Of a stretch of 64,000 nucleotides of DNA, positions 7,797 through 49,160 are shown piece after piece; the stretch's first letter is position 1; each line of letters starts with the position of its first letter. The DNA is from Candidatus Shapirobacteria bacterium. Its GTDB lineage: Bacteria; Patescibacteriota; Microgenomatia; UBA12405. The notes beneath the pieces are model-generated. The model was not told the DNA's origin. It saw only the letters and a list, made by a program, of their open reading frames with translations, and searched no databases. A program made the position numbers and the translations under genes. Location of the stretch: positions 10,830-74,829 of the forward strand of contig JBBAAS010000003.1 in assembly GCA_041658125.1 (NCBI GenBank). The letters run 5' to 3'.

Positions 7797-7870
7797 TGAG
7801 GATTTGTCCCGATCGAAAGATTGGGACCATGAATCGAACTCTTCTGGTACTGACAATCTGACTTCAAACA

Positions 7871-8953: not shown

Positions 8954-8954
8954 C

Positions 8955-27306: not shown

Positions 27307-28413
27307 CTATAAACCTGATCTAACTATTGTTTCTAATTCTGAAATAGTTAGATCTTTATCTTGCATTGAAAATGAGTTTCTCACTCTCGTGGAAATATCT
27401 TTAGCCTTTTTGGAGGAGATTTCTAATCCAAAATATTTTCTTGAAATTTCTATAAGTGCATCAGCGCTAAATAATTCTCCTATTACATAATTAGGAATAA
27501 AACCAAAGCTTTTTGGTTTTACTGTTTGAAATTTATTATTTTCTATCACTCTCTTAATGTGGCTTGCCGCAACATGTCCAAACGCTGATGGGCTGAGAGG
27601 ATCTCTGTTAAAGGACGCTTTAAGGGGAAAGATTAAAGATAAAAGATCCTTGTAGAAGTTAATCCGATACCTCTTTTTTGTATCCTTCTCTTCCGAGACA
27701 GACACAACTGACAGAACATCTCCATACGATAGTATCCCATTCCTTTCTCCCATCCCGGACACAGATACTGCAAATAAAATGTCCCTATGCGTTTTTTTTG
27801 CTAATTTGTAAACTGTATAAAAATTCGCTGCTGCTAGTCCTTGGTCGTTATGAAAATGAAATTCGATAGGAATTTTTTTCATGATTGAATTGTGAATGTG
27901 TTGAAAAAAAATGCCCACAATTTCAGGTGTTGCGCAACCATTCGAATCAGCAAAACAGATATGGCTGACTACTTTATGTTTACAAATTTTCTTACATACT
28001 CTACAAATAATATCCTTATCTATTTGAAAGGAATTTTCTATGCTAAGTCTTAACTTAATGTTATTTTTTTGAGCCCAGTTGATTATTTTTAAAGCTTGCC
28101 TCATTATGATTTGTTCATTATTGCCGATTAAAGAGGTACTTACGTTTTTTACGCCTATTTTTTGCAGGAGTGTCAAATCCTTGTCGTTTATTCTAGAGTA
28201 AGTAAAAATTTTTAAATTCGTCTTTAATTTAACAACTTTTTGATATTCGTTGAGAAAATTTGTAGAAATGTATGGATGCATAATTTCCATATATTCGACC
28301 CCCATTTTGTCTATGATTTGGACGTATCGTCTTGCTTTGCCAAGAAGCATTCTGTTCGAAGAACTTTGTTTCCCTTCCCTAAAGGTTGAATCGATTAGGT
28401 GAATATATTTCAT
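27307..28413 (-). CDS. HMGL-like (DRE-TIM) metallolyase, homocitrate/isopropylmalate-synthase-like
   Basis: IDSTFREGKQ (DTTLRDGEQ-like) and HFHNDQGLAAAN (HxHNDxGxAxAN). Confidence 0.55.
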   Translation of the reverse strand: MKYIHLIDSTFREGKQSSSNRMLLGKARRYVQIIDKMGVEYMEIMHPYISTNFLNEYQKVVKLKTNLKIFTYSRINDKDLTLLQKIGVKNVSTSLIGNNEQIIMRQALKIINWAQKNNIKLRLSIENSFQIDKDIICRVCKKICKHKVVSHICFADSNGCATPEIVGIFFQHIHNSIMKKIPIEFHFHNDQGLAAANFYTVYKLAKKTHRDILFAVSVSGMGERNGILSYGDVLSVVSVSEEKDTKKRYRINFYKDLLSLIFPLKASFNRDPLSPSAFGHVAASHIKRVIENNKFQTVKPKSFGFIPNYVIGELFSADALIEISRKYFGLEISSKKAKDISTRVRNSFSMQDKDLTISELETIVRSGL

Positions 28414-28467
28414 AAATATCGGATACTTGTTTCAAGTATATCAATATGCTCTGCTCCGGTAAATAGG

Positions 28468-28531
28468 AATGGGCATGACTTTTGTCCGTATAAACAATAA
28501 CGTTTAGTTATAACTACAGGTTTTAGAACTA
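28468..28531 (+). repeat. family-2 cassette-boundary repeat R0 (degenerate; ends GGTTTTAGAACT)
   Basis: ...gtttagttataactacaggttttagaact shares its terminal module with the repeats at 29.9-34.5 kb. Confidence 0.4.
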
Positions 28532-28569
28532 GCTCATGCTAAAAAAATATTTAATCTATAATCACAACA

Positions 28570-29007
28570 ATGGGTAATCCTCTTCAGGTAATTTCAGTAA
28601 TATTAGTCATTAGGTGCCAAGGTAAATTTTTGTTGGTGCAAAGATCGGAAAAAGATGATGTTTTCCCGGGATATTGGCAGAATATGGGCGGCAAAATTGA
28701 AATTGGTGAAACTGTAGAAAATGCAATTGCCCGAGAAATGGAAGAGGAAGTAGGGTTAAAACTAGATAAAACGCCGATATTTCTACACAGTTATTCATGG
28801 AAAAAGGATAATGATTCGCCAACTAAATTAGGATTAATTTTTTTAGTTGAGCTAAGCGGCAAAACGAAAGATCAAAAAGTGAGATTAAGTGATGAATTAG
28901 AAAGATACGGGTGGTATTCAATTGAGGAGGCAAAAGAAATAAAAACCATAGGGCCTGATAGTCCTACAGGGACACTTGGACAATTGAATAAAACACTTCA
29001 AGTTTAG
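28570..29007 (+). CDS. NUDIX hydrolase
   Basis: Nudix box GGKIEIGETVENAIAREMEEEVGL. Confidence 0.75.
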   Translation: MGNPLQVISVILVIRCQGKFLLVQRSEKDDVFPGYWQNMGGKIEIGETVENAIAREMEEEVGLKLDKTPIFLHSYSWKKDNDSPTKLGLIFLVELSGKTKDQKVRLSDELERYGWYSIEEAKEIKTIGPDSPTGTLGQLNKTLQV

Positions 29008-29057
29008 CTCTACTCTCCCTTAATCCACTTTTCAATTTCTGAAAAACTTAAACCCCT

Positions 29058-29876
29058 TTATTTTTGTCGATCTGGTTGTCTGGAAAAACGGCCTGGTAAG
29101 CCTCTGCCAATTGTCTGTGAACGGGTGTTAATATCTGGTCGGTGGTTATAGTCTGGCAATATTTCGTTTGGAACTCCAAATCTTACTCGATCTTTATTGA
29201 CCATAATCTCTTCAGGTGTTTTCGGTGGCTGAAGTAGAGTAAAAGCGTAGCTCCAACTACAGAGATAGTCTCTTACTATTGGATAAAATCCATGACCTCC
29301 GAGATTTGCCGGTATTGTTGCAGTTTCCGCAAAGGCATTTACATATCTGGCATAGGCTAAAAGAGCAATTCTGGTAGGATCTGATATCACCCAATTCTTT
29401 GACTTTTGTTGAGAAGTAAGAGAGGTATAACCAATCGAACAATAAACATTTTCCATATGTTTTTCTAATTCAGCTTCATAAGTTTTGTTCACCCTATCTC
29501 GACCTAATCTTCGTTTAGGATCAGTTGCGAGGTAAAGTTTCTCTTTTTCGATAAGTTCACCAATCGGAGAAAGCATTTTTTGAATCCAAGAAGTGGTTAC
29601 CTCCCAATCCACTGCTTCTGCCGGTAAATTTTTAGCTCGGACTACTCTACTTATTTGGTCTCTTGTTACAGACTGTAATGAGGTTGTGAGAGCACTAATA
29701 ATCGGACTTGGGTCTTGATACAAAATTCTGCTAGCCTGATTTCTACTAAGTTTTCTTAACACAATAAATTGTTCAAAAAAACCTTTACCGGCAACTTCTC
29801 CTCTTTTGTCTATTTGATGAATTTCACTATTGTAATCTAACTGCAAACTTAAGCCTTCGCCTTTGTCTTGAGCCAT
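29058..29876 (-). CDS. hypothetical protein
   Basis: 272 aa ORF; no family recognised. Confidence 0.45.
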   Translation of the reverse strand: MAQDKGEGLSLQLDYNSEIHQIDKRGEVAGKGFFEQFIVLRKLSRNQASRILYQDPSPIISALTTSLQSVTRDQISRVVRAKNLPAEAVDWEVTTSWIQKMLSPIGELIEKEKLYLATDPKRRLGRDRVNKTYEAELEKHMENVYCSIGYTSLTSQQKSKNWVISDPTRIALLAYARYVNAFAETATIPANLGGHGFYPIVRDYLCSWSYAFTLLQPPKTPEEIMVNKDRVRFGVPNEILPDYNHRPDINTRSQTIGRGLPGRFSRQPDRQK

Positions 29877-29910
29877 AAACTCATAATAACATACCTCCTC
29901 CCAAGCTTAG

Positions 29911-29980
29911 CCCACTTCGTGCCTGCCCTGAGTTTATCAAAAGGGGAACGCTCCCCCAAATTGGATAGGTTTTAGAACTT
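29911..29980 (+). repeat. family-2 repeat R1
   Basis: GCCTGCCCTGAGTTTATCAAAAGGGGAACGCTCCCCCAAATTGGATAGGTTTTAGAACT. Confidence 0.7.
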
Positions 29981-30068
29981 TCAATATAACTCACAATTAA
30001 AATATGGGTATTTAGTGATATACTTTGATACTCTAGGTAAAAATTTTGGTTTTACTTATAAATAAACT

Positions 30069-30719
30069 ATGCAAGAAAGAATCCGCAAATTACAAACGCT
30101 TAAAGAGGCAGAAGAAAGAGTTAGCGCTGTAGGAGTAGCCCAAAAAGATACGGCAATAAAAGCAGTCGATAAGGATAAGTTGGCAGATTGTGTTGCTGTG
30201 TTTGATATGTTGGGAATAAACCAAGGCTTAAACGAAATAAACCAGGAATTATTGCAGGGTCGGGGTCGGGTAATGCATAATTCGGGAATAAAAGAAGGAT
30301 CTTGGGAAAGGTCATTGGGTGATGGTGCTTATGAAAATGTATTTTATCGTTATGCAGAGGCGGGTGTTTGTCTTAAGTGGATCGATGGTAGATATATAGT
30401 CGTAAACATTACAACCGATGCCGAGAATGAAACTTACAAAGGTTATAGTTTAAAATTTTCTTATACTGGAGATTTGGGTGACTCAGAAGTTGTTTTAGAA
30501 TTTGATAGAGTCCGTGGAAAAGAACATCGAGTAACTGGCGGGGGTGTTGTTGAGTACTATAAACAAACCGAGTATACAACTGAGGAACTGAAAGAAGCAT
30601 GCCTTAACAAACTGGCTTCAATATGTCTTTCCATGCAAGAAGGGGGACTGTTTACACATCAAAGGGTAGAAACGAAACCCGAACCTCCAAGAAAAAGAAA
30701 AGGATTTTTTGGACTTTAG
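30069..30719 (+). CDS. hypothetical protein
   Basis: 216 aa ORF flanked by family-2 repeats. Confidence 0.45.
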   Translation: MQERIRKLQTLKEAEERVSAVGVAQKDTAIKAVDKDKLADCVAVFDMLGINQGLNEINQELLQGRGRVMHNSGIKEGSWERSLGDGAYENVFYRYAEAGVCLKWIDGRYIVVNITTDAENETYKGYSLKFSYTGDLGDSEVVLEFDRVRGKEHRVTGGGVVEYYKQTEYTTEELKEACLNKLASICLSMQEGGLFTHQRVETKPEPPRKRKGFFGL

Positions 30720-30786
30720 CAAATCACTGCTACTTAATCATAGTATATAAACATATATTGCGTATATATAGGATATATTTGAGATG

Positions 30787-30857
30787 CTCGCCTCGCGCCT
30801 GCCCTGAGTTTATCAAAAACGGACAGGCTTGCCTGCCGGCAGGCGGGTTTTATAACT
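30787..30857 (+). repeat. family-2 repeat R2 (variant with a GCCTGCCGGCAGGC palindrome)
   Basis: GCCTGCCCTGAGTTTATCAAAAACGGACAGGCTTGCCTGCCGGCAGGCGGGTTTTATAACT. Confidence 0.7.
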
Positions 30858-30876
30858 AATATTATATAATTACCAC

Positions 30877-31542
30877 GTGGAACAAGATTTTAGGCCAGGA
30901 TTAATGGCCTCTGTAAGAAAAGCTATAGAAAGGGGTACAACCGCCGCTCAAGATGAACAAGCAGGATATGTATGGACCCAATCCTGGAATTCTGATGTTT
31001 TTGAATACAGATGTGTTTTTGGTTCCGTTTTTTCAATATGGTTTAATGACTTTCTCGACAAACGGAGAAATGAGGGTAAAGTTTATGCATTAGATCTCAT
31101 GAGTACTTCTGCGATGTTAACTGGTTTGAAAATAGATGGTGGCGTTGCTGTTGGTTTAGGAAATATAACAAATGAATTATCTGAAGAACAAATGAGGGAA
31201 AGAAACATTACTTACATAGCAGGGAATCTGTTGAAAATACAACCCTGGAATAGTATTAAGGATTGGCTTGGGAGAAACAATGCAGACGGATTCGATCTAA
31301 TTACTTGCCGGGCAAATTTATCAGGTTGTCATAGCGAATATGTTCCCCGTTTTCCTTCAGTTTATTACGCCCTTCTAGACAGGGCGTGGAATTTATTAAA
31401 TAAGAATGGCGGAGTACTTTTAGTTGACGCCCCTTGGCTTATACACCTTGAAGGTGGTATTCCAAGGGAACTAGTTAATGATTGGCTCAAGAGACTGAAA
31501 CAAGCCAATGTTGAATGTCTTTACAAGGAAGGCACCAATTAA
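30877..31542 (+). CDS. hypothetical protein
   Basis: 221 aa ORF; no family recognised. Confidence 0.45.
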   Translation: MEQDFRPGLMASVRKAIERGTTAAQDEQAGYVWTQSWNSDVFEYRCVFGSVFSIWFNDFLDKRRNEGKVYALDLMSTSAMLTGLKIDGGVAVGLGNITNELSEEQMRERNITYIAGNLLKIQPWNSIKDWLGRNNADGFDLITCRANLSGCHSEYVPRFPSVYYALLDRAWNLLNKNGGVLLVDAPWLIHLEGGIPRELVNDWLKRLKQANVECLYKEGTN

Positions 31543-31599
31543 GTTTGTAAAAAAATCTGATTCTTCAAAACATTTACCAACCTGACGTTTTAGTATTTG

Positions 31600-31645
31600 T
31601 GTTGTTAAAGCCTTGCCCGGCGAGTGGAACGATTTTAAAACTTTA
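31600..31645 (+). repeat. family-2 repeat R3 (degenerate)
   Basis: gccttgcccggcgagtGGAACGATTTTAAAACTtt. Confidence 0.4.
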
Positions 31646-31891
31646 CAAACTAACTTTGACTGCCCCATCTCTTAAAGGACAGCCGGTGGGACTAACAGCC
31701 GTGATATTCCGACAGCCCCAAGTAATACGTGCTGTTATCATAGTATCAATATCAATATCACATCTTGCCTTACCAACACCCTGTTCAAATTGTTCAATTT
31801 CAACCACTGGGGTTCCTTGAGCCGCACCAACCAGCCCTTTTTGGATTGCTGGACAACTCTCTCTAATAGCTTCAAGCGATGGATAGCACAT
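31643..31891 (-). CDS. small Cys-containing ORFan lying between two repeat copies; coding status uncertain
   Basis: 82 aa ORF with GC-richer composition, bracketed by R3 and R4. Confidence 0.25.
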   Translation of the reverse strand: MCYPSLEAIRESCPAIQKGLVGAAQGTPVVEIEQFEQGVGKARCDIDIDTMITARITWGCRNITAVSPTGCPLRDGAVKVSL

Positions 31892-31933
31892 TTGGTAAAG
31901 TTTACCCTACACAGTCATATATATCAAACAGAC

Positions 31934-31985
31934 TCAGGGCTCGAAGAATGGAACGATCCCTCAAACTGGACAGGTTTTAAAACTG
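31934..31985 (+). repeat. family-2 repeat R4 (first module inverted: ACTCAGGGC)
   Basis: actcagggctcgaagaatGGAACGATCCCTCAAACTGGACAGGTTTTAAAACT. Confidence 0.65.
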
Positions 31986-32029
31986 CTAAAATAGACATTA
32001 TTAAGTAGAAGTTTTTATTGAAAAGATAA

Positions 32030-32800
32030 ATGAATAATATTAGGTTTAAGGATAAAATTGCTCTAATTACCGGAGCTAGTCGAGGGATGGGAAAAGCAAC
32101 TGCACTGGCATTTGCCAAAGAAGGCGCAATTGTAATAATTGATTATTTTGTTTCTGATTTCGAACCCGATGCAGAATCTAATGCAAAAGAAGTTGTCAGG
32201 CTGATCGAGGAAATGGGGTCAAAAGCAATGGCGATAGAGGCAGACGTGTCTAATGAAGATATGGTGAAAGATATGGTTGAAAAAGTAATGTCCGTTTATG
32301 GAAAAATCGACATTTTGGTTAATAATGCAGGGATTGCAATTGATCTACCGCTGGAACAAAGAACGGTAGAACACTGGAAACATACTTTGGATGTCAATCT
32401 GATCGGAGAATATATCTGTGCAAAAAATGTAATCCCGCATATGATCAAAAACGGGAAAGGAGTCGTGGTTAATATTGCTTCCAGCAGTGGCTCAAAATGT
32501 TTCAGTCCGGAAAGTATTGATTATGATAGTTCCAAAGCCGGAGTAATCTCATTGACAAAAAATTTAGCAAAAGAGTACGCACTAAAAAATATAAGAGTTA
32601 ACGCTGTTGCTCCGGGTTGGATAAACACTCCGCTGAATAAAGATCTGCCTTTGGAATTTGTAAAATCTGAAACCGATAGGATCTATCTGAAAAGATTTGG
32701 GGAACCGGAAGAAGTTGCAAATTTGACATTATTTTTAGCTTCTGATGAGGCAAGTTACATCAATGGAGAAGTTGTCACAATTGACGGCGGTTACGAGTAA
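32030..32800 (+). CDS. short-chain dehydrogenase/reductase (FabG-like)
   Basis: TGASRGMGKATALAFAKEGA (TGxxxGxG), NNAG, and S...YxxxK present. Confidence 0.8.
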   Translation: MNNIRFKDKIALITGASRGMGKATALAFAKEGAIVIIDYFVSDFEPDAESNAKEVVRLIEEMGSKAMAIEADVSNEDMVKDMVEKVMSVYGKIDILVNNAGIAIDLPLEQRTVEHWKHTLDVNLIGEYICAKNVIPHMIKNGKGVVVNIASSSGSKCFSPESIDYDSSKAGVISLTKNLAKEYALKNIRVNAVAPGWINTPLNKDLPLEFVKSETDRIYLKRFGEPEEVANLTLFLASDEASYINGEVVTIDGGYE

Positions 32801-32809
32801 ATTTTGGTG

Positions 32810-32885
32810 AAACACTCCCAAACTGGACAGGCATGCCCTGAGTTTGTCGAATGGGCTTGCCTGCCTGCAGGCGGGTTTTAGAACT
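32810..32885 (+). repeat. family-2 repeat R5 (variant with a GCCTGCAGGC palindrome)
   Basis: cccaaactggacaggcaTGCCCTGAGTTTGTCGAAtgggctTGCCTGCCTGCAGGCGGGTTTTAGAACT. Confidence 0.7.
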
Positions 32886-32963
32886 ATCTAAAAAATTTTT
32901 TTACTATATTAGCCAGGCTCGGATAATCTTCATAATCGTGAGTGTCGTTATTTGAATTTTTTA

Positions 32964-33314
32964 TCAGTTGGTAATTTGCTGGCGATAATTCTTTTTCGGT
33001 AAACCAACTTCTTTGGCTAATAAATAAGGGTGACCACACAAAATTATTTTTTGAGGATTAGTAGCCTTTTCGTAAATAGTTTTTAAGGCAAGGATTGCCC
33101 CAACTGATTTAGCAAAGATGTAATAATTATTTTGGGTTTTTACTAATTCGGCAAGTTTTTTAGATTTGGCCCCAAAATCTATAAATTTTTTTCCATTAGT
33201 CCAGTGATCGTAATTAAGAATAGTTCCGGTAGAAAATATGTCAAATTCTGACTTTACTTTTTCAATCCAAGTTTTGTTGTTTAAACTATTCCCGGCTAGA
33301 TAAATAATGTTCAT
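32964..33314 (-). CDS. hypothetical protein
   Basis: Likely start at the internal MNIIYLAGN; the upstream part of the track ORF runs into repeat R6. Confidence 0.4.
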   Translation of the reverse strand: MNIIYLAGNSLNNKTWIEKVKSEFDIFSTGTILNYDHWTNGKKFIDFGAKSKKLAELVKTQNNYYIFAKSVGAILALKTIYEKATNPQKIILCGHPYLLAKEVGLPKKNYRQQITN

Positions 33315-33343
33315 ATAGCTGATTTTACCAAAGTTTATAAAAT

Positions 33344-33395
33344 GCCTTTGCCACCTTAACGGAACGATCCCCAAGGGGACAAGTTTTAGAAATAG
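33344..33395 (+). repeat. family-2 repeat R6 (short form)
   Basis: cttaacGGAACGATCCCCAAGGGGACAAGTTTTAGAAAT. Confidence 0.6.
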
Positions 33396-33447
33396 CTCCT
33401 CCCGCTGGGATAGTACTCGGATAGAAAAGTGGGTTAGGAATTATTTA

Positions 33448-34326
33448 TTAAATCCCAATTTTCCAAACATTCTTTTCCAAAAAAGCTTCGATGGTTTGAC
33501 GACCGGCTTTGTTTAGAAGATTGGGATGAGAAAGTTTATTGGTTTTGGCAAAATCACTAAGGGTGACAATTTTTTTACCCTCCAGATAGGCTAATCGTTT
33601 ATGATAACTGTTGGTTAGTGCTTTACCGACCATTTCTTCCATGACGGTTGTTATTTCCTTTGCATCAAATTCTTTAAATGCATCATAGTATTTTTTTCGA
33701 TCAATAAATTTGATGTTTATGGGAACAAAACCTTCTCGGATAAGTAGATAATTATTGATAACTCGGCCAATACGACCATTACCGTCAACAAAAGGGTGAA
33801 TATATTCAAAGGTTAAATGTAAACGAGCAATACGCTTGATAATATTTTCATGGCTGGAAGCATTGTATTGAGATAACATTTTTTCAAGCCTCTCAATAAC
33901 TTCTTTGGGGGTTGGAGCAATGTGACTGCCAACCCGAACAAACTCGCCATCTTTTCTAAATCTGCCCGCTACGTCATCACGAATATTGGAAATTAACATT
34001 TGGTGCAGAGTTAAAATCACACCAAGAGTGAGTTCCTGTTCTTTGGCTTTTTTATCAATATAGGAAACAACCCGGGCAAGATTTTTTGTTTCAAAAATTT
34101 CTCGTTCAGTAATAAATCGATCAAGATCAATCTGTAGAAGAATCTTTTCGGTTTCTTCGAGAGTCAGGGTGCTGTTTTCAATGGCGTTGGAATTGTAAAC
34201 TTGCTCAGCAATTTCAGCTTCACTAATTAGTTGAATAAGAGCCTCTTTGCCGGTGGATGCTTGGTAATACCGTTGACGAAGACTACTGATTTTACTAAAG
34301 ACATTTAATATATTAGTCATATCCAT
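33448..34326 (-). CDS. Fic/Doc (Fido) family protein
   Basis: HPFVDGNGRIGRVINNYLL is the Fic motif HPFx[DE]GNGR. Confidence 0.8.
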   Translation of the reverse strand: MDMTNILNVFSKISSLRQRYYQASTGKEALIQLISEAEIAEQVYNSNAIENSTLTLEETEKILLQIDLDRFITEREIFETKNLARVVSYIDKKAKEQELTLGVILTLHQMLISNIRDDVAGRFRKDGEFVRVGSHIAPTPKEVIERLEKMLSQYNASSHENIIKRIARLHLTFEYIHPFVDGNGRIGRVINNYLLIREGFVPINIKFIDRKKYYDAFKEFDAKEITTVMEEMVGKALTNSYHKRLAYLEGKKIVTLSDFAKTNKLSHPNLLNKAGRQTIEAFLEKNVWKIGI

Positions 34327-34425
34327 TATTATAGTCTATTTCACGTTTTTGTCAACATAATCGTGAATAACTGGTTATTTTTGATGTATTTTCACGGTTT
34401 TGAAGGTATTTTTCATGGAATATCG

Positions 34426-34493
34426 GCTCGCTTGGTGCCTGCCCTGAGTTTGTCGAAGTGGAACGATCCCCCAAAACGGACAGGTTTTAGAAC
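34426..34493 (+). repeat. family-2 repeat R7
   Basis: GCCTGCCCTGAGTTTGTCGAAGTGGAACGATCCCCCAAAACGGACAGGTTTTAGAACT. Confidence 0.7.
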
Positions 34494-34630
34494 TAATACC
34501 CGAACCCTAAAAAAGCGAAAAATTGTTTAAAGTGTTAAAGTAAAGATATGAAGAGACAATCAGGTACAGTAAGTGTCGTATCGGGATTCTTTATTATTGT
34601 GCAACTGGCTGAAAATCTTAATTTCTTAAT

Positions 34631-35161
34631 ATGCAACAAGCACCCATGAAAGAGGAAAGTGAAGAAATAGAATTCCACCCAAGTAGAATTGTAACATTGT
34701 GCCTGAGTTTGTTAGTGTTTACTTTTATGTGTCTTTTTTCGACCCTACTTGTTTACCTATCTACCAGAAATGTTTTGCTTGCGGGAATATGTTTTTTGAT
34801 AACCTCTGTTTTGTCGATTTTTATTATTTCTAAAATGGCAAAACCGAAGTTAACACTGTCTCAGAAGGGAATATTTTATCGGGATAAATTTTATGACTGG
34901 AACGAAATTGTGTCGATGTCCCGTAACGTTGACGAGGGCATTTACTATAGGGTTAAAACAAAGAACGGAGACGTAATAACTTTTAACGGCATCTTTTTTT
35001 CGACACAATTTGAGAAGCTAGTAGTTGCTAATGCCTCCTTTGAGGAAGTACCTGTTGGCAAGTATTTTTATTTTAAACGCTGGAAGAAGATTGGCGGTGA
35101 ATATGAATATACCGGATTTTGGGATAAATTAGTCGATATTCTGCAAAAAAAGATTTTCTAA
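34631..35161 (+). CDS. hypothetical membrane protein
   Basis: Two N-terminal TM helices and a soluble C-terminal domain. Confidence 0.45.
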   Translation: MQQAPMKEESEEIEFHPSRIVTLCLSLLVFTFMCLFSTLLVYLSTRNVLLAGICFLITSVLSIFIISKMAKPKLTLSQKGIFYRDKFYDWNEIVSMSRNVDEGIYYRVKTKNGDVITFNGIFFSTQFEKLVVANASFEEVPVGKYFYFKRWKKIGGEYEYTGFWDKLVDILQKKIF

Positions 35162-35370
35162 AGAAGTTATTTCTGCGGCAGAGAGATTGTAGTTTCAGGA
35201 CAGCTCCGATTATGACTTGTAACCAAGTTACTAAGCGTTGTTTTGAATTTTGGCAGGCTTGAAAAAACCATAAAGCTTAATGGATTACTTTTTTTTGATT
35301 CGCCCAAACAACTTGTTAATCTTGAAAAACTTTTGACATCTTCTAACTTGCCAAAAAGTGAATCATTTTA

Positions 35371-35889
35371 TTACTTAAATTTTCCGAATATAAAGCCTTC
35401 AAAAATTAATGCCAGAATGAAATAGGCGATATAGCAAAGTATGTCTAATCCTATTACCATAAATATTTTCGTTCCTATCGAGCGGGATTCTTTTCTAATT
35501 ATCTTTAAGCTGAAAATCCACCCAATGGCACCCACGGCACCTCCAATAAAACCTCCCGTTATTAACAAAACGAAAGCCGGTAAAACTGCTAACCATTCGT
35601 ACCATTTTAAGTTTTTAAAATTAAAAGAACCTTTTACTTTTTCCGGTTGTATTTGAGAGACCGTTTGCTCTGATAAAAGATGATCATTTTCCCGTAAAGC
35701 TTGATCGGCCGGATTGGATATTTTATTTGTTTCCGGTGTTATGGGCCTTACTTCATTTAGCAAACTTTTGATGGTAATATCAACAAAACCATAATTGGCT
35801 AATTTAGTTTTAATAATGTCTTCTGTTTCTCCGGCGGCAAACCATTCCTTAATGTAAATTTTGGCTTGATCTTGGGTAATAAAGTCCAT
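35371..35889 (-). CDS. hypothetical membrane protein
   Basis: Soluble N-terminal domain with two TM helices at the C-terminus. Confidence 0.45.
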   Translation of the reverse strand: MDFITQDQAKIYIKEWFAAGETEDIIKTKLANYGFVDITIKSLLNEVRPITPETNKISNPADQALRENDHLLSEQTVSQIQPEKVKGSFNFKNLKWYEWLAVLPAFVLLITGGFIGGAVGAIGWIFSLKIIRKESRSIGTKIFMVIGLDILCYIAYFILALIFEGFIFGKFK

Positions 35890-35907
35890 CTAAGTAAATT
35901 TAGACTT

Positions 35908-35968
35908 TTAACAATGGTTTGTCAAACAAATAGCTCGATGAGTGAAGTGGTTTAGAACTTTAGTTCCT
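35908..35968 (+). repeat. family-2 repeat R8 (degenerate)
   Basis: tttgtcaaacaaatagctcgatgagtgaagtGGTTTAGAACTTtagttcc. Confidence 0.35.
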
Positions 35969-36038
35969 AATTTTCACCGTACTCTATCCATTCAAAAATT
36001 TCCCCATAATATCACTTACGGGGTAAAATGAAGTTGCA

Positions 36039-36347
36039 ATGATCATTACCATTAACGGGAAAATTGTTAAGCCGGGAAAAGAATCCAAGAAAAAACCACG
36101 AATGAGTCCGTGGTTCAAAAAATGGTTATTGGTAATCGGAGGAACATTGCTGTTGATGACGGTCCCGGCCTCGTTTTTGGGATTTGACGAAGACTTAGGG
36201 TCGGCTTGGCTTTTTCTTATTTTGTTAGTATTAATAATACTTTTTGCAGTGGTGATATTATCGGCAATAGTTACTTGGATAAAAAATATTTTGAAATTTA
36301 AAATGGTGATTTACACTGTTGAAAAACCTAAAACAGTAAAAGGTTAG
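36039..36347 (+). CDS. small membrane protein
   Basis: 102 aa with two TM helices. Confidence 0.4.
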   Translation: MIITINGKIVKPGKESKKKPRMSPWFKKWLLVIGGTLLLMTVPASFLGFDEDLGSAWLFLILLVLIILFAVVILSAIVTWIKNILKFKMVIYTVEKPKTVKG

Positions 36348-36607
36348 TCAAACTTGCGGGAGGTTTGACAGTAACTACAAAATTCACAATCAGGATGGGG
36401 CTCCAGCTGTACCGAAAAATTCGGACGTTTTTCAAAGCCGTAAGGTAAGGCGCGGCGGTGGGGGACGCCACGCCGATCAATTATTTTTTGTGGGCGTGAT
36501 TTTTAAAATTTTTTGGCTCCCCGTAGTGCGCAAACTTCGCAACTGGTTCACTGAGAGTTCGCTCCCGGCTCTCCCTTTGAAGTTTGCTTTCAAAACTGTT
36601 ATTTAAA
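36348..36607. other. GC-rich structured intergenic region: strong hairpins with a T-run, repeat-like fragments; candidate ncRNA or array boundary
   Basis: GTCAAACttgcgggaggTTTGAC, GGCGCGGCGgtgggggaCGCCACGCC followed by ttatttttt, and GCAAACTTC...GAAGTTTGC. Confidence 0.3.
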
Positions 36608-37378
36608 TTATTTATTCCCGGCTATTTTTTCGACATCCACATAACCCTTACCCTTGTCATCCTTTTTCGTGTAGGGAATTTTATCAGGCGATATGCCAAA
36701 GTGTATAAAAAATTCTGACAATACTTCAAAGGTAACATATTTTGAGTCATAAATTGCGTCTGAAACATCGGCATTAATTTTTTCATAAAAATCTTTAGTT
36801 ACATATACTATGGACGCGTCATCAAAATCCGACTTGTAGAATAAGTCTTGCACCTCCTTCGGTTTTAAAAATAGTTTTTTTCCTTCCCATAAACTTGCGT
36901 TTTTAATACCAACATTAAACTTGACTTTTTTTACCTTGGGGATATGGGTCAACATCTTTTTGTAAAGTTCCACAAACTCATAAACATACTCCACAATAGC
37001 CAAACTATTAAGTTGTGGGTATTCAACAAATTTATTATGGTCTTGACCCCATCCCAAAAAACTGTCGTCAGTGTATGCTATGGCGACTAAAGAGCCATCC
37101 CGATACAATCGAATTGTTTTTCTATCTCCGTTTTTTACCTCCCAGCACTTACCATCTTTGATTCTTGGCCAGTCGAGTGTGAGTAGGTTCCAGCCAGAGT
37201 ATCTTAAATATGGCGGGTTTTTTAACATGTCACGCAAAGGGTTGTTTTCCTCAGCAAAAAAGTTATCAAGATTGATTTTCTCTTGTGGTTCTACTCCTAA
37301 AACAACTAAAGGTGGAATATAGGTATTATTGTTTGTTTCCATAAATTGTCTCTTCAATTTTTGCCGGAATACTGTCAA
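36608..37378 (-). CDS. hypothetical protein, last gene of the restriction-modification-linked operon
   Basis: 256 aa; start overlaps the upstream gene; no family recognised. Confidence 0.45.
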   Translation of the reverse strand: MTVFRQKLKRQFMETNNNTYIPPLVVLGVEPQEKINLDNFFAEENNPLRDMLKNPPYLRYSGWNLLTLDWPRIKDGKCWEVKNGDRKTIRLYRDGSLVAIAYTDDSFLGWGQDHNKFVEYPQLNSLAIVEYVYEFVELYKKMLTHIPKVKKVKFNVGIKNASLWEGKKLFLKPKEVQDLFYKSDFDDASIVYVTKDFYEKINADVSDAIYDSKYVTFEVLSEFFIHFGISPDKIPYTKKDDKGKGYVDVEKIAGNK

Positions 37379-38045
37379 TGTCGATTGCCGGCACTAATGT
37401 AATTATTGAAATCTTCTCCTTTACTTCGTCCATCTGGTTAGACAGACTTTGGTGAAATTCCTGTAGGCTATTAGGTGAGCGCTTAGATAACTTGTGCAGT
37501 TCTTGAACCGTAAGCCAAGTAATGTCATCGTCAGTTCTAATAGGAATCCCAAAAAACTCCTTTGTAGATTCACTCTCCACTTTGGTAATTTTTATGATGA
37601 AGTATTTTTTGCCTTCATCTTGGGGTAAAATAGATATTACTCCTAAACCTAAAGACGCATCACCACTACTCGCACACCAATCAACTTTAATATCTAATCG
37701 AGGGTAAACATTGGTAATGATTATTCCGTTAATTTGTTTTCCATCATAGAAGTCAATTTTTGACATTAAATCAAGCGCTGTAACATAATCGTGCGGAGAA
37801 TTGGCTCGTTTTTCTGTGGACAAACCACAAATAATATAACCGCCACCACCGTTGGCAAAGCTGACAACATCTTTTATAAGTTCAATAATTGCCTTTCGTT
37901 TGGGTAAGTCGTAGGGGTGTTTCTGCTTTGCTTCAAATACACCAGACTCTCTTTGAGAAATCAATTTATCGAAATCGCTATTTTTTAATATTTCGGCGAT
38001 TTCTTCGAATGTAAGTGTTTCGTCTTTATTTGTTAGATTGCTCAT
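37326..38045 (-). CDS. AlbA_2 / Schlafen-like divergent-AAA (putative DNA-binding) domain protein
   Basis: ESGVFEAKQK...IKDVVSFANGGGGYIICGL matches the E..EFK...AFAN..GG.L.IGV pattern of AlbA_2 domains. Confidence 0.45.
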   Translation of the reverse strand: MSNLTNKDETLTFEEIAEILKNSDFDKLISQRESGVFEAKQKHPYDLPKRKAIIELIKDVVSFANGGGGYIICGLSTEKRANSPHDYVTALDLMSKIDFYDGKQINGIIITNVYPRLDIKVDWCASSGDASLGLGVISILPQDEGKKYFIIKITKVESESTKEFFGIPIRTDDDITWLTVQELHKLSKRSPNSLQEFHQSLSNQMDEVKEKISIITLVPAIDIDSIPAKIEETIYGNKQ

Positions 38046-38701
38046 TTTGGTTGCTCGATGTGTGGATTAGTAAATTTCCATTTCAACCGGTACCAACTCA
38101 ACAAAACCATTTCAGAATATTTTCGGTAACAAACATACATTTTTCCAATAATATTTAATTTTTTCGCGGGAAACATTTTTAAGCCACCAAAACCTGTTTC
38201 GACTCTGGAATAATAGTAATTTCCTTCGGCGTTTCTGAAGGTCAACAACAAACCTATCCTGTCTCTTTTATGTTCTGCTTCGGGGTCAAGATGAAAAATT
38301 ATAAATTCGGCCATATCTGCGGTCACCCCGTTACTTGTTGATTCAATTTTCAAGTCCCTTTCTTCATCGGGAACGAGTATGTTGGTTCCAGTCATTGATA
38401 AATCCAACCTCCAAACTTTTTGAATGTCTCTGACGATATTTACAAATGATTCAATCTTGATGTCGTAAGCGGGACTTTTGCCAATATTTCTGATTCTTAT
38501 TTTTCTATCTTTCATGGCAATACCCTTAAAATAAACTGCTAACAATGGCATCAATTGAAGTTCGTTTGCTTTATTCGCGGTCTTCCAGGAAAAGTAAGCA
38601 ACAAGAGCCGTTGTAAAAATTAACACTATATTCAATAGACTTAAAGCCTGAGGAAAATATGGCTGTTGAGATAACTCGATAAACTTTTGCCAGTAATCCA
38701 T
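38042..38701 (-). CDS. hypothetical protein with an N-terminal TM anchor
   Basis: 219 aa; overlaps the downstream gene by 4 nt (operonic). Confidence 0.45.
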   Translation of the reverse strand: MDYWQKFIELSQQPYFPQALSLLNIVLIFTTALVAYFSWKTANKANELQLMPLLAVYFKGIAMKDRKIRIRNIGKSPAYDIKIESFVNIVRDIQKVWRLDLSMTGTNILVPDEERDLKIESTSNGVTADMAEFIIFHLDPEAEHKRDRIGLLLTFRNAEGNYYYSRVETGFGGLKMFPAKKLNIIGKMYVCYRKYSEMVLLSWYRLKWKFTNPHIEQPK

Positions 38702-38767
38702 ATTAATTCACCAATTCCTCTCCAAACGCCTTAGCTAAAATTGATTGGGTTAATTTTTCGTATTTAT

Positions 38768-41700
38768 TCATATTCGTGTGTAATATTTATTCTTTACACA
38801 GGCGGATTTAACAAAACTTGTATCAGAAACCTTATCTTTAGGAATATCAATATTGAAATAAAGGCAAAAAACTAGGTCGTCAATGTGATTCTTTATCGCT
38901 TGCTGTTTATCAAAATCGATTACCGGTAAAGACATTAACTCAGATAAAGCAATTATTTTTTTGTCTAACCCAAGCCCTTCCTTGTTGTAGTTTGCTTCGA
39001 TGACTTTGCTTACCAGGGAGGAATTTCTCTTGATTGGTAACCTTATCTTTTCTCCCTCTTTTTCCATGACTAATTTGCGATTTTCAACGTAAACTCTATC
39101 AAACTTTTGAATCATTATTTTCGATAAATCTACGAAACTTAAGATGGTTTTGTCTTTTAAAGCCAATACTTCTTCAACTCGTTTAATACTTTCTTTTTTT
39201 ATTGATTCATTATTTTTGCCAATTATTGGGGGACGTATTAGATCTTTAATTACTTTTAGACTTACCAATATTTTATTGGTATCCTCATTTTCAGCGCTAG
39301 CAACATTTTTCAAAATCCATTTTGTAACTTTTGAGTTTAGAAGAGCAAATAAATAAAATATCTCTTGTTTATTATCAGAGGAAATAGTCATATATTTATT
39401 TGTTTCTAACAATATTTTTCGGTTTGTGAAGCAAAAGTTTTTTGTATTTTTTGTTCGCCATATTAGTTTGTTTTCTTGTTTAAATGTCTGAATACCTTGG
39501 CTTCCTTGTGGGAAATTAATTTTCTTGTTTGAAGGGTAATATCTTTTTCCTTTTGGAACTAAATAGTTTACTTCGTCAAGTTCGTCAACTATTTCGTAAT
39601 AATCGTCAACGCTGTTAGTAATATATTTTTCATCTATCAAAGCTCCACCATCGAAGTAAAATTTATTCCCAAACTCGACACTAGATAAAACATGATCTGA
39701 ATAAATTGCGATTCCAATACTATTTCTTATATATTCTTCATAAAGACATTCTGTAATTATGTTAAATTTAATAAAATTCCAATTACCGACATTTTGTAAT
39801 AATTTATTTTGTAGGACTAATTTTTTTATAACTTTTTTACCATGAGAAATGTTTTTAAGACATGTATCGATGTCATCGTTTTTATCTTTATATTTAAGAA
39901 TTTCTACTCTGTGTATAATTGCTGGAATTTCCCTTGAAACTATAAAGATTAAACTTGAGGTTGGAATAGGTTTATTACTTTTTAATCCTCGACCGATAAA
40001 CATTTTTCCGCTAAATATAATAATTTTCTTAATTGTGGTAAATCTCGAAAGATGATAGCGTAGTACGTCAAAATCAGGATTTATTAGAATTGTTTGGGGT
40101 ATGATATAGCATAGTTTCCCCTTATCTTTAAGTAGAGCCAAGCCAAGCGCTATAAAAAATGCAAATAGATTCGGTTTAGGCGCATATTTTTTTTTATTTT
40201 CAGGTGTGCTGTGTAGGTTAACACCGTAAATATCACTTAATTTGGCTTTCTTATTTTTCATAAGTTCGAAACTAAGTAGCCTTTGTTTAATACAATCGTT
40301 ATATCTAATGTATGGGGGGTTACCGATAACATAATCAAAACGTTTCCTTAGGGTTTCGGTGTGATTTTCGAGACTTGTTTTCATTTCTTTCAAATCATCT
40401 TCATCTCGGACATAACTTGAATAACCCAAATTTAGTTTTTCAGTAAATAGACCCATCTGGCCCTTGCTTTTTTGGTAGGCTATATCTATATCATTAACTG
40501 TATTCTTCAGAGCAGTGTCCATGAATTCAGAAATGGAATCATTTGTCTTAAAAACTTTGATTTTTTTGTCTATCGGATTGTTATATTTCTCGTTAATAAT
40601 CAATGAAAGCATACGCATCAGAATACTCATTTCGGCAAGATAAAGAGGAAATTCCTCAATATCAAGTCCAAAGATACCATTTGTTACCGCTTCCTCAATT
40701 TTCTTTGAAGCTTCTTCGCTACCGTTTTTAAAACCCTTAACTATGACGTCTGTGGCAGAATAAAGGAATGTGCCACTACCACAAGAAGGATCAATGATTG
40801 AGATACTATCTTTGTCAAGTTCATATCTTTTGGAAACTGTCTCGGGGGTAAAGCCAACTTGCTCTAACATGAAGTTAACTACTGCCGGGTCGGTAAAATA
40901 TTGGCCTTTTTTGCTTTCGTCGTAAAGTTCTTTTAAGTAGTTTTCGTAAATATAGCCAAATATTTCATTTCTAACATTGGCATAATTATATTTTTTAATA
41001 AAAATAAAAATATCCAACCAGGGAGAAATGTCAGAAAGATTGTTCTCGAGACTGTGGTAGAGTTCTAGAATCTTGTCTTTAATAAACTCCTGTTCTTTTA
41101 TAAAAGGACGATAAATATTTTTCGATATTCTTGCTGAAATGCCCTCAATAATACCGAGAATGTCTTTGTACCTCCCAACTTTTAGAGATTCATGAATTCT
41201 TTTGACTATGGTTTCAAATTCGTTAGCAAAATCATCAAAATCGTTATCGACCAGTGTTTTGTAAAGTATGAACTGAATGACATAGGCGTAGGTAAGTTCA
41301 ATTGCCCGTTTTCCCCTCTCCTTATCGTTTGATGCTTCAAGATATCCCTCAATTTGTAATTTGTTTTTGAATGATTGGATGAGCTTAGTGATGTCTTCAA
41401 AAAAGAGTTGACGATTATTTTCTACGCGGAGTTTTGTTTCTTCAATAAGTGCCAATTGTCCGGTTTTCTCAAAAAATGATAGATAGTAAAATTCGGGTTT
41501 GACGTATTCCTTCCAAAAGGTGAGAAATAATTGGGTGTTGGTTAATAAGTCTTCTAGGGTAAAAACTTTAAAAATGTTGTTATTGTAAAATCGCCAGGTA
41601 TATCCGTCGGTTAAAATGCCATAATGTTTGTCAAAATCTTTCTGGTAGTTAAATAATTGGCTTTCTCCGGTTTTGATATTCCCATAACACTCAACCTCTA

Positions 41701-41953: not shown

Positions 41954-42134
41954 AGACTTTCTAACGATAAGAGTATTATATCCCAGTATTTTTCAATACT
42001 AATGGTAATTAAATTGTTCGTCTTTCCATATAAATTTTTTGTTTTCCGACCGAGCTTCTTATAGAGATCTATTCCTCTACGCTGAAAATTTTTCCTCCCT
42101 TTACTTTCCCTCCCAAATTGTGTAATTTTAACCA

Positions 42135-42837: not shown

Positions 42838-42850
42838 ATTTTTATATTTA

Positions 42851-43693: not shown

Positions 43694-43735
43694 CTCAAGT
43701 CAATAAGCAAAACCGAAGAAAAGGCGAAAGATAAT

Positions 43736-46679: not shown

Positions 46680-46689
46680 AATCTCGATT

Positions 46690-46757
46690 CCCCTGCCCTG
46701 CTTGCCCCTGGGGGGCTTGCCCCTTTGGGGTCAAGGGAAGGGGTAGGGGAAGGGTTT
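46690..46757 (+). repeat. family-1 palindromic repeat (type B)
   Basis: cccctgccctgcttgcccctggggggcttgcccctttggggtcaagggaaggggtaggggaagggttt. Confidence 0.65.
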
Positions 46758-49134: not shown

Positions 49135-49160
49135 AAGTCAAAACCCTCTTTTTATTAAAG

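Follow-up and report, generated by a model that had tools for sequence, protein, structure and literature searches.

A cassette-like gene array in a Candidatus Shapirobacteria chromosome and its possible tRNA-Asn-type attachment sites

Known systems of small gene units and the array in the window

Small gene units without a recombinase of their own, set between co-oriented site-like repeats, are typical of integron cassette arrays and of CALINs, which are clusters of attC sites (lower length limit about 55 nt) without integrase. The pdif modules of Acinetobacter plasmids are likewise discrete, small and free of an internal recombinase, are shuffled among replicons and are bounded by 28-bp sites with XerC/XerD arms, which lie inverted around a module (XerC-XerD versus XerD-XerC). 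REP/BIME sequences and Rickettsia palindromic elements (RPE) are short, contain inverted repeats and vary in module order. [quoted passage not shown] According to PMC4383910, tRNA-targeted integration restores the tRNA and the displaced fragment remains at the island end; with repeated integration, older elements are pushed outward and partial tRNAs are scattered in the islands (bioRxiv 10.1101/2020.12.28.424599).

In the window studied here (64 kb of a chromosome of Candidatus Shapirobacteria, a member of the Microgenomates within the CPR), nine repeats of one family (family 2; R1 to R9), all on the + strand and spanning 28516-35959, separate nine small gene units (Table 1). The first-pass annotation had described nine repeats pointing in one direction, which was confirmed with refined coordinates (R1 was shortened); the copies lie at or inside the positions given there, and no further copy was found in the rest of the 64 kb. 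Its description of the units as single genes holds for most of them, but two are convergent pairs; its NUDIX, SDR and Fic calls were agreed by Pfam, and the 82-aa ORF (orf82) is flanked by two repeats as described. Six of the array genes are on the + strand and five on the - strand. R1 marks the left array edge, in the divergent region between an HMGL-like gene and NUDIX. On the other side, a family-3 repeat of about 115 nt is followed by a site of related type, which is probably a tenth array site, and the two together probably form the right array end; the same arrangement was found at 16675-16878 of locus L130 (another contig of the same MAG, with WC596 locus tags) and at 8278-8375 of locus L163.

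Table 1. Repeat sites, modules and gene units of the array (window positions)
Feature	Position	Strand	Composition or remark
R1, truncated	28516-28530	+	ACAGGTTTTAGAACT only; 28468-28515 is not repeat
Unit 1	28570-29876		NUDIX hydrolase (28570-29007, +) and 272-aa ORFan (29058-29876, -), convergent
R2	29911-29979	+	GCCCACTTCGTG + module A + GGAACGCTCCCCCAAATTGGATAGG + TTTTAGAACT
Module A, copy 1	29921-29944	+	GCCTGCCCTGAGTTTATCAAAAGG; more copies at 30797-30820, 32831-32854, 34437-34460
Unit 2	30069-30719	+	216-aa ORFan
R3	30786-30857	+	GCTCGCCTCGCG + module A + AACGGACAGG + palindrome GCTTGCCTGCCGGCAGGCGG + GTTTTATAACT
Unit 3	30877-31542	+	221-aa ORFan
R4	31615-31642	+	28-nt base form, no GC-rich insertions; GCCCGGCGAGTGGAACGATTTTAAAACT; E = 7e-6
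Unit 4	31643-31891	-	82-aa ORF (orf82), between R4 and R5
R5	31934-31984	+	CTCAGGGCTCG AAGAA TGGAACGAT + 17-nt hairpin module CCCTCAAACTGGACAGG + TTTTAAAACT
Unit 5	32030-32800	+	Short-chain dehydrogenase (SDR); Pfam
R6	32810-32885	+	GGTGAAACACTCCCAAACTGGACAGG + module A + palindrome C + GTTTTAGAACT
Unit 6	32964-33314	-	116-aa ORFan
R7	33359-33393	+	ACGGAACGATCCCCAAGGGGACAAGTTTTAGAAAT
Small repeat	33394-33447	+	AGCTCCTCCCGCTGGGATAGTACTCGGATAGAAAAGTGGGTTAGG...; also L132 453-507 (93%), L163 4840-4879
Unit 7	33448-34326	-	Fic protein; Pfam; own promoter 34355-34328
R8, fullest copy	34426-34494	+	GCTCGCTTGGTG + module A + GAACGAT + CCCCCAAAACGGACAGG + TTTTAGAACT
Unit 8	34631-35889		Predicted membrane proteins, 176 aa (+) and 172 aa (-), convergent
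R9, base form	35933-35959	+	GCTCGATGAGTGAAGTGGTTTAGAACT; E = 0.007
Unit 9	36039-36347	+	Predicted membrane protein, 102 aa
Family-3 repeat and site	36398-36545	+	Family-3 repeat (36398-36513), then GCTCCCCG... site at 36516

The 28-nt base site and its GC-rich modules

Removal of the GC-rich modules reduces the repeat to a 28-nt base site, GCTCGNNNGGTGGAACGATTTTAGAACT, and an alignment across these 28 nt comprises 11 base-form copies, drawn from four organisms. The repeats had been annotated as GC-rich; GC-rich modules are indeed present, but the repeats are really composites of an AT-rich base site and GC-rich insertions, and it is the base site, not the modules, that is conserved between organisms. 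GGTTTTAGAACT with at most two mismatches gave 23 matches in the 64-kb window (10.9 +/- 3.2 in shuffles), those with 0-1 mismatch being confined to 28.5-34.5 kb, and GCCTGCCCTGAGTTTRTCRAA had four occurrences (0 expected). The modules are module A, a CCCC..GGGGACAGG hairpin and a GCCTGCMKGCAGGC palindrome, and inspection shows a short inverted repeat in every one of them. Whether a module is present or absent varies between orthologous or paralogous sites: the SDR ortholog of L133 (84.5% nucleotide identity) has a base-form site before it, lacking the hairpin module of R5, and a different gene after it, and L130-16089 is the R8 site without module A. Furthermore, module A is placed differently in R6 than in R2, R3 and R8. 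The GC-rich modules are later insertions into or beside the base site, not the recombination core.

Module A, an element of about 24 nt, is free-standing, with no linked gene, in more than 120 unrelated genomes from many prokaryotic phyla, and its almost exact conservation across phyla sets it apart from species-specific REPs. Other GC-rich families are present in the genome (among them family 3), and family 1 has 11 copies across 46-62 kb, all on the + strand, so co-orientation is not unique to the array. Some copies of this sister family lie in frame inside genes, including essential ones, as is also the case for RPE. Together with the mosaic, BIME-like modules, these observations make it conceivable, although rather unlikely, that the repeats are passive intergenic filler (REP/BIME- or MITE-like) in a hypervariable region with no dedicated recombination system. 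Turnover would then reflect RecA-dependent recombination and ordinary horizontal transfer, in which the repeats would act as homology patches at most. This is the main rival of an array of tRNA-Asn-type att sites. The likeness to REP/BIME and RPE extends to the GC-rich modules only, and no RAYT-type transposase is encoded in the window. Against the passive reading, it is the base site rather than the modules that is conserved, and five of the nine window sites have divergently transcribed genes on either side, an unusual position for REP or terminator-type elements.

The sites might also be shared promoters, operators or terminators of the accessory genes, and the near-palindrome GTTTTARAAC would in that case bind a dimeric regulator. 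R4 and R5 each contain GTTTTAAAAC, a perfect 10-bp palindrome; a + strand gene starts 20-140 nt after six of the nine window sites; and canonical terminator-like hairpins are present in R3 and R6. We consider such a role improbable: a terminator scan picked only R2 and R3, three window sites and five sites of locus L131 abut the 3' end of an opposite-strand gene, and the tRNA 3'-end duplications, the synteny breaks at sites and the copying of an entire unit along with its sites (described below) would be left unexplained.

The length of the base site equals that of dif, and a full site of L163 (L163-475) is palindromic, AGTTCAAAAATCGTTT-GCTCAGCGGATG-GAACGGTTTTAGAACT, with inverted arms flanking a GCTC core, as would be expected of a recombinase core site, also under the att-site reading. 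Nevertheless, it is very improbable that these are dif-like XerC/D sites whose units moved like pdif modules, with which the array shares small site-bounded units lacking an internal recombinase. The array sites are chromosomal and directly repeated, not inverted and on plasmids; the base site has no dif-like arms or evident 11-6-11 dyad symmetry and is unlike the dif consensus; and the duplications of the tRNA-Asn 3' end have no explanation under the Xer model.

Comparison with integrons and CALINs

The organisation reported by the first-pass annotation, with small gene units bounded by repeats, was borne out. The array resembles integron arrays and CALINs in its mostly single-gene units without own recombinase, its co-oriented site-like repeats, its typical cassette cargo (Fic, NUDIX, SDR, ORFans), and units that are common to several loci and genomes and turn over between them. 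The integron- or CALIN-like reading drawn from this organisation failed. No R''(RYYYAAC)...R'(GTTRRRY) pair with 55-145 nt spacing was found on either strand of 28401-36650, while 2.2 were expected by chance; the search floor of 55 nt is the assumed lower limit of attC length, and the 28-nt base site falls below it. The attC-like folding that the first-pass annotation had proposed to check was no better than in shuffles for seven of the nine sites on either strand (single-strand folds, z-scores from -2.0 to +1.2), and good folds were obtained only for the two site copies with palindrome C. In contrast to integrons, the sites lack R''/L''/L'/R' boxes and an imperfect hairpin, both gene orientations occur, the Fic gene has a promoter inside its own unit (a perfect TTGACA-16-TATAAT match), and the sites go with tRNA-Asn 3' ends instead of an attI platform. 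Pfam scans of the ORFs of the whole 64 kb detected no tyrosine or serine recombinase domain, transposase domain or intI. With precomputed Pfam lists for the other loci added, about 140 kb from five genomes yielded no recombinase, which counts against an array of att sites and in favour of passive repeats. Lacking R''/R' cores, attC-like folds and intI, and with genes in both orientations, an integron or CALIN identity is effectively refuted, and a true integron-type array with highly divergent attC sites is barely credible.

tRNA-Asn 3' ends and turnover of the gene units

Six further copies of the family are located in L130, five on one strand and co-oriented with the tRNA-Asn of that contig; the sixth, at 9007-9022, is short and inverted. 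The opposing picture named by the first-pass annotation was that of repeats scattered genome-wide without association to gene units; since the family is indeed present in another part of the genome, half of it applies, but there too the copies are arrayed in one direction and alternate with gene units. The L130 array lies directly downstream of tRNA-Asn(GTT), which is itself interrupted by a group I intron. A second copy of the last 10 nt of this tRNA, together with 66 nt of flank, is found 6.3 kb downstream (93% identity), 12-nt copies of the tRNA 3' end are present at 11036 and 12460, and the sites are mixed with these true displaced copies, all of which are co-oriented. Duplications of the tRNA-Asn 3' end were also found in relatives (17 nt in L131, 16 nt in the Gottesmanbacteria locus L164). 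Upstream of a 208-aa gene, homology between L130 and L131 reaches ...CCTTGCTCG, after which a family-2 site follows in L130 and an exact copy of the tRNA-Asn 3' end in L131. Similarly, the left flank of R3 (30739-30789, +) is 83% identical to the 50 nt after the tRNA-Asn 3' end in L132 (2029-2079), and the homology extends to GCTC(G/C)CC.

This lineage carries such sites in arrays beginning at the tRNA-Asn(GTT) 3' end; they co-occur with displaced 3'-end fragments and take their place at two junctions. Among the options of the first-pass annotation, a lineage-specific recombination-site family or hypervariable accessory locus fits best, and it can be sharpened by this co-occurrence. The duplications (16-17 nt, exact; 76 nt at 93%) in the same arrays, the two junctions and the nearly uniform direction of the sites of each array with the tRNA all argue against passive repeats. 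No tRNA was found at either end of the window array, and local alignment of the family-2 consensus to 17 tRNA ends gave scores of 5-7 for all of them, tRNA-Asn being no closer than others, so the tRNA link rests on position and co-occurrence.

The site family is present in related genomes too, with different genes between the sites. Comparison of MAG and metagenome contigs covering a handful of related loci, a check proposed by the first-pass annotation, revealed that repeat-bounded units vary in presence and order between loci and genomes. The Fic, SDR, 208-aa and 435-aa genes have different neighbours in related genomes, and between the common 208-aa and 435-aa genes, the gene content of L130 and L131 is completely different. 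The Fic unit of about 960 nt (33440/33455 to 34402/34413) is also present in L163 (91% nucleotide identity) and L164 (79%), again with different neighbours; identity of the Fic protein across many CPR lineages and phyla is 83-95%, while the best non-self match of the flanking HMGL-like protein is 55%. Mapped homology breaks are mostly in sites or within about 10-50 nt of them; no site marks the place where homology of the 208-aa gene ends on its downstream side, and sites flanking the L164 Fic unit were not recognisable.

The R4-orf82-R5 unit (369 nt) is present in both arrays of the genome, with 96% identity over 369 nt and about 100% in the interior; the flanking sites are only about 75-80% identical, and identity ends right after ...GCTCG. 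If the repeats were passive, gene conversion over a tract limited by repeat homology could explain this duplication. In the second copy (L130 9766-10132), a 2-nt indel cuts the ORF to 65 aa, so orf82 may not be a real gene. Other assemblies break at orf82 because the unit is repeated in the genome.

The reading we prefer, with a probability of about 0.52, is a non-integron, cassette-like array on tRNA-Asn-type att sites whose recombinase is unseen. Like tRNA-anchored islands, the arrays of L130 and the relatives start at a tRNA 3' end and contain co-oriented partial 3'-end copies, as expected from serial integrations pushing older DNA outward, and the host genome is streamlined and poor in classical mobile elements. 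Unlike such islands, no integrase or remnant was seen in any array, the units are much smaller (0.3-1.5 kb), a site mostly of the diverged family-2 form is found at almost every gene boundary, and the window array lies away from a tRNA. DNA segments would repeatedly integrate and recombine at attachment sites of the tRNA-Asn type by means of a recombinase presumably encoded elsewhere, and the window would hold a secondary array of the site family. Each event would leave a hybrid site, in which the upstream unit keeps the left few bases (...GCTCG) and the right arm (TGGAAC...TTTTAGAACT) moves with the downstream unit. Events of this kind would account for co-oriented sites, for units in either orientation and for their exchange between arrays and genomes.

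Composition of the array and anatomy of its sites

Chromosomal and low in GC (~37%), the window comes from a MAG (locus tags WC596_) of Candidatus Shapirobacteria, within the Microgenomates of the CPR. Besides housekeeping genes, it encodes a single, isolated 16S rRNA, a tmRNA and four tRNAs. The first-pass annotation had listed nine repeats (R1-R9, family 2); every one of them is present, all on the + strand, and no further copies occur within the 64 kb. GCCTGCCCTGAGTTTRTCRAA was found in four copies (0 expected), and the terminal GGTTTTAGAACT gave 23 matches with at most two mismatches (10.9 +/- 3.2 in shuffles), with near-exact copies only within the array. A site lies at almost every gene boundary, and the units between sites measure 0.3-1.5 kb. 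Pfam agrees with the NUDIX, SDR and Fic gene calls, while the remaining unit genes matched no Pfam family, and genes do lie on both strands as described (6 on +, 5 on -). The description of units as single genes applies to most of them and had to be corrected for two, which are convergent gene pairs. The 82-aa ORF between R4 and R5 (orf82) carries no NCBI annotation, and a 2-nt indel in its second copy, on another contig of the same MAG (L130), cuts the ORF to 65 aa; the orf82 unit may be non-coding.

Elsewhere in the window, the 16S rRNA gene is isolated, with neither 23S nor 5S close by, and it is followed directly, on the other strand, by two small T4SS-pilin-like genes. There is also a tRNA-Ile with anticodon TAT (UAU), which adjoins two tRNA-Met(CAT) genes; a tRNA-Ile(UAU) is an uncommon bacterial means of reading AUA.

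Positions of the array, its flanks and other features in the window and in related loci
Feature	Sequence	Position	Content or remark
Left flank of array	window		polysaccharide-biosynthesis cluster, last gene HMGL-like
R1-R9	window	28516-35959	co-oriented sites
orf82	window	31643-31891	
orf82, second copy	L130	9854-10051	
Fic gene	window	33448-34326 (-)	
Module A copies	window	29921-29944, 30797-30820, 32831-32854, 34437-34460	
Right flank of array	window	36608-44407	defence-type (or phage-like) island: 244-aa ORFan, Schlafen/AlbA_2 protein, 219-aa ORFan, 1061-aa MmeI/Eco57I-type restriction-modification enzyme, Bro-N protein, SNase (staphylococcal-nuclease homologue)
Family 1 copies	window	9445-9500, 46674-46757, 49159-49201, 55233-55285, 56433-56516, 56636-56719, 57524-57577, 59458-59541, 62163-62205	
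Family 3 copies	window	36398-36513	
Family 3 copies	L130	8867-8983, 16703-16878, 4679-4713	
Family 3 copies	L163	4669-4826, 8329-8375	
GCTC... site after family 3	window	36516	
GCTC... site after family 3	L130	16675	
GCTC... site after family 3	L163	8278	
tRNA-Asn(GTT)	L130	4270-4554	split gene
Short inverted family-2 copy	L130	9007-9022	
GIY-YIG gene	L131	27-407	
GIY-YIG gene	L164	5544-6019	
GIY-YIG gene	L163	8400-8740	
16S rRNA gene	window	6321-7797	
T4SS-pilin-like genes	window	8639-9368	
tRNA-Ile(UAU)	window	62665-62739 (-)	

The base form of the site, GCTCGNNNGGTGGAACGATTTTAGAACT, is 28 nt long and rather AT-rich, and it stands alone in R4 and R9 and in copies from L130 and from three loci of relatives (L131, L133 and L163). 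The site L130-16089 equals R8 minus module A, the L133 site upstream of the SDR ortholog is without the 17-nt hairpin module that R5 has, module A occupies a common position in R2, R3 and R8 and a different one in R6, and only base forms occur in the relative L131 (31% GC). From these base-form copies and the presence or absence of modules across sites, we therefore conclude that the conspicuous GC-rich modules are secondary insertions. By inspection, each module includes a short inverted repeat, and the 17-nt hairpin module resembles module A in inverted, degenerate form.

Rfam held no family for any repeat, either in a gathering-threshold scan of the whole window or in a scan of 28-37 kb at E<=10. 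The sites do not form a terminator family, as a terminator scan flagged only R2 and R3, and a promoter scan gave promoter-like matches at background level only; we regard a regulatory reading as minor. Scanning of viral contigs for the base site yielded 29 matches, all coding or chance (TGGAATGATTTTAAAACT = WNDFKT) and none with the GCTCG part, and a stricter base-site pattern yielded none. When metagenomes were scanned for module A with GTTTTADAAC after it, the four matches were all due to chance co-occurrence; the source sample is evidently absent from that collection.

A second array at tRNA-Asn and the probable exchange of units

L130 contains a 369-nt copy of the R4-orf82-R5 unit (96% identical overall, with a near-identical interior), five more family-2 sites on one strand and one short inverted copy. 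Other assemblies of this population end within the R4-orf82-R5 unit, because the unit is a repeat. A misassembly across this repeat was rejected, since the L130 contig continues through the second copy, whose SNPs and flanks are distinct; the sole remaining pairing is therefore that of the window. The L130 array lies directly downstream of a tRNA-Asn(GTT) gene that contains a group I intron (60.9 bits, Rfam RF00028) and was for this reason missed by ARAGORN, and the five sites are co-oriented with the tRNA. Upstream of tRNA-Asn, L130 begins with dnaG-rpoD, an arrangement shared with the Gottesmanbacteria locus L164. A 76-nt stretch, made up of the last 10 nt of the tRNA and the 66 nt after it, is repeated 6.3 kb onward with 93% identity, two more 12-nt copies of the tRNA-Asn 3' end occur in L130, and repeats of the GCGGGGGAGC type are exact tRNA-Asn ends.

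One published account (PMC4383910) describes a regenerated target and a displaced fragment as the signature of integration into tRNA genes, and serial integrations scatter partial tRNAs across an island (bioRxiv 10.1101/2020.12.28.424599). The tRNA-Asn repeats of L130 are this standard signature of tRNA-gene integration, which is also that of serial integrations. The Islander-type arrangement (an intact tRNA and a displaced 3' fragment in direct orientation) is present in L130, L131 and L164, though not in the window's array.

Among the relatives, the 208-aa gene of L131 is 96% identical (nt) to that of L130, and five co-oriented base sites of L131 lie between quite different genes (GH130, two methyltransferases, DUF4352). 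At the terminus of the L131 array is a truncated tRNA, cut by the contig end and read from its 3'-end sequence as a probable tRNA-Asn, whose last 17 nt are exactly duplicated around a 77-aa GIY-YIG gene. In L164, dnaG-rpoD and two further genes precede tRNA-Asn, after which come a GIY-YIG gene, 16 nt duplicated from the tRNA 3' end, an S8 peptidase, GNAT and Fic. L163 has four family-2 sites and two copies of tRNA-Asn type (GCTCCCCCGCGAGGAC), all on one strand. In L132, the 50 nt after tRNA-Asn share homology, up to GCTC(G/C)CC, with the window sequence on the left of R3. At two orthologous junctions, therefore, one genome carries a family-2 site where another carries either the 3' end of tRNA-Asn or an exact duplicate of that end (L130 10124 versus L131 407; window R3 versus L132). 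The small GIY-YIG gene (77-96 aa) was found in L131, L164 and L163; in L131 and L164 it directly follows tRNA-Asn, and an exact duplicate of the last 16-17 nt of the tRNA closes it off. It may have arrived as a homing-type insertion, or it may represent the array's first 'cassette'.

Near the window array, between 28 and 37 kb, there is no tRNA. In local alignment, the family-2 consensus showed no significantly greater similarity to tRNA-Asn than to other tRNAs; the tRNA link is therefore claimed from position and co-occurrence only. Pfam analysis of the called genes found no tyrosine integrase in the islands (L130, L131, L132, L163, L164 and the window), and no recombinase was present around the arrays in ~140 kb from five genomes. 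A literature search combining CPR, tRNA-Asn and integration found nothing.

The first-pass annotation had proposed comparing related genomes for cassette turnover, and such turnover was observed: the orf82 unit stands at two loci, and the neighbours of the Fic, SDR, 208-aa and 435-aa genes differ in L163, L164, L133, L131 and L132. For the orf82 unit, near-perfect identity begins at GTGGAACGATTTTAAAACT in the left site, extends to ...CTCAGGGCTCG and then falls to ~80% in the right site. Homology of the 208-aa gene between L130 and L131 ends directly after ...CCTTGCTCG, SDR homology ends at the stop codon, 10 nt ahead of R6, and the ends of the Fic unit are identical in three genomes (33440/33455 to 34402/34413). 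These homology breaks, few in number, suggest exchange between ...GCTCG and TGGAAC. In such a step, the upstream unit would retain the few bases at the left, while the unit downstream would take the right arm along. A search with the Fic protein (7793 matches at E<=1e-60) found it 83-95% identical in Peregrini-, Gottesman-, Berkel-, Komeili-, Moran- and Azambacteria MAGs, while the best non-self match of the HMGL-like flank protein is 55% only; at least the Fic unit therefore moves horizontally. Conservation of Fic so far above that of its neighbouring genes points to a recent spread among CPR lineages. In L163 the Fic gene is 91% identical (nt), and the unit also includes a NUDIX gene unlike that of the window. 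The HMGL-like ortholog of L128 (55% identical) was discarded as a guide to turnover, being in another context, devoid of sites and too distant.

At about even odds (roughly 0.5), the arrays would be the product of dedicated site-specific exchange at attachment sites of tRNA-Asn type. Some synteny breaks lie away from sites, and the repeats may instead be passive intergenic elements of a hypervariable region that is shuffled by homologous recombination, an explanation that we consider possible and rather unlikely.

Further repeat families of the genome

A second GC-rich repeat family (GCTTGCCCCTGTGGGGTCAARGG..., family 1) comprises 11 copies, every one of them on the + strand. In essential genes, three copies are in frame (TsaD residues 68-86; Sua5-TsaE fusion residues 226-254 and 294-322), and, as with Rickettsia palindromic elements, the insertions split Pfam domain matches of the host genes. 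A weaker copy covers residues 17-36, near the N terminus of a SpoIID-like ORF. Family 1 is strictly co-oriented across 16 kb, and thus strand bias is a wider property of repeats in this genome. A third family of ~115 nt (family 3) has the hairpins CCGAAAAATTCGG and GCGCGGCGG...CCGCGCC, and in three inspected copies it is followed by a GCTC... site.

Module A, a ~24-nt element (GCMTGCCCTGAGTTTRTCRAA(GGG)), is almost exactly conserved in at least 120 species-representative genomes (exact 21-mer scan; loci L003-L122). Its hosts, among the matches listed, are Acidobacteriota, Chloroflexota, Planctomycetota, Bacteroidota, Verrucomicrobiota, CPR and one archaeon, and the flanks of these listed matches show no conservation. 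L051 has four tandem copies with a period of 24 nt. A tie to a gene family was rejected, as no neighbour family recurs in the 120 loci, and so was a tie to tRNAs, as just 3 of the 129 copies have a tRNA no more than 300 nt away (~0.9 expected; linkage not significant). Module A has no Rfam family and no match in the literature searched by sequence or peptide, and it merits separate study.

Comparison with known systems and implications

The array had been proposed to be integron-like or CALIN-like. This identity was not sustained, since neither R''/R' core pairs nor an attC-like fold were found in the array, and no integrase in the 64 kb. Pairs of R''(RYYYAAC) and R'(GTTRRRY) 55-145 nt apart numbered 0 on both strands of 28401-36650 (2.2 +/- 2.4 in shuffles), and the repeat ends, GCTCG... 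and ...GTTTTAGAACT, are indeed unlike canonical attC cores. When the nine sites were folded as single-stranded DNA on both strands, the expected attC-like folding did not appear: z-scores for the nine ran from -2.0 to +1.2, seven sites were no stabler than shuffles, and only R3 and R6 fold well, via palindrome C, as an internal GC hairpin and not end-to-end. Pfam analysis of every ORF of the 64 kb found no Phage_integrase, recombinase, resolvase or transposase domain, in line with the remark that no intI adjoins the array. The units are not promoterless cassettes co-oriented with the sites as in integrons, for genes lie on both strands and the Fic unit has its own internal sigma-70-type promoter (12/12 match, TTGACA-16-TATAAT). 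Literature on integrons, attC and Patescibacteria consisted, by title, of resistome and beta-lactamase surveys, and described no integrons in CPR bacteria. The array resembles an integron in its working, yet fails the defining tests of one, and the integron reading is minor.

The same is true of pdif-module arrays, which the array resembles in working while failing their defining tests. In pdif/Xer modules, 28-bp sites with XerC/XerD arms (11-6-11) alternate in orientation, whereas the nine sites of the window are all direct repeats and the base site, from inspection of the alignment, has neither dyad symmetry nor dif-like arms; an Xer-module reading is likewise minor. REP/BIME elements are GC-rich extragenic palindromes that occur genome-wide together with RAYT. 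The GC modules of family 2 are palindromic and mosaic. The window has no RAYT or Y1 transposase, and in the examined ~84 kb of this genome family 2 is seen in two arrays only. The closest kind is that of tRNA-anchored islands with scattered partial tRNA repeats, from which the array differs in having a site at almost every gene boundary, units of only 0.3-1.5 kb, no integrase remnants and a secondary array distant from the tRNA.

To our knowledge, descriptions of classical mobile elements from the tiny genomes of CPR/Patescibacteria are few, and the exchange of accessory and defence genes in these bacteria is poorly understood. The most far-reaching proposal is a cassette system of CPR (Microgenomates) bacteria analogous to integrons, in which 28-nt sites derived from a tRNA-Asn att site would be served by a putative recombinase or nuclease encoded in trans, with a primary array at tRNA-Asn, secondary arrays elsewhere and single-gene units (such as the near-identical Fic) passing between distant CPR lineages; we regard it as speculative and improbable. 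A more modest reading, decayed serial integrations, still explains the recurrent assembly breaks and strain heterogeneity here. If the sites are active, they would provide a cassette-exchange mechanism for a large uncultured part of the bacterial tree, integron-like in outcome yet based on tRNA-type attachment sites, and their signature (the 28-nt site with tRNA-Asn anchoring) would locate hypervariable loci and their cargo in MAGs. Should a trans-acting enzyme exist, which is rather unlikely, CPR bacteria would have an integron analogue.
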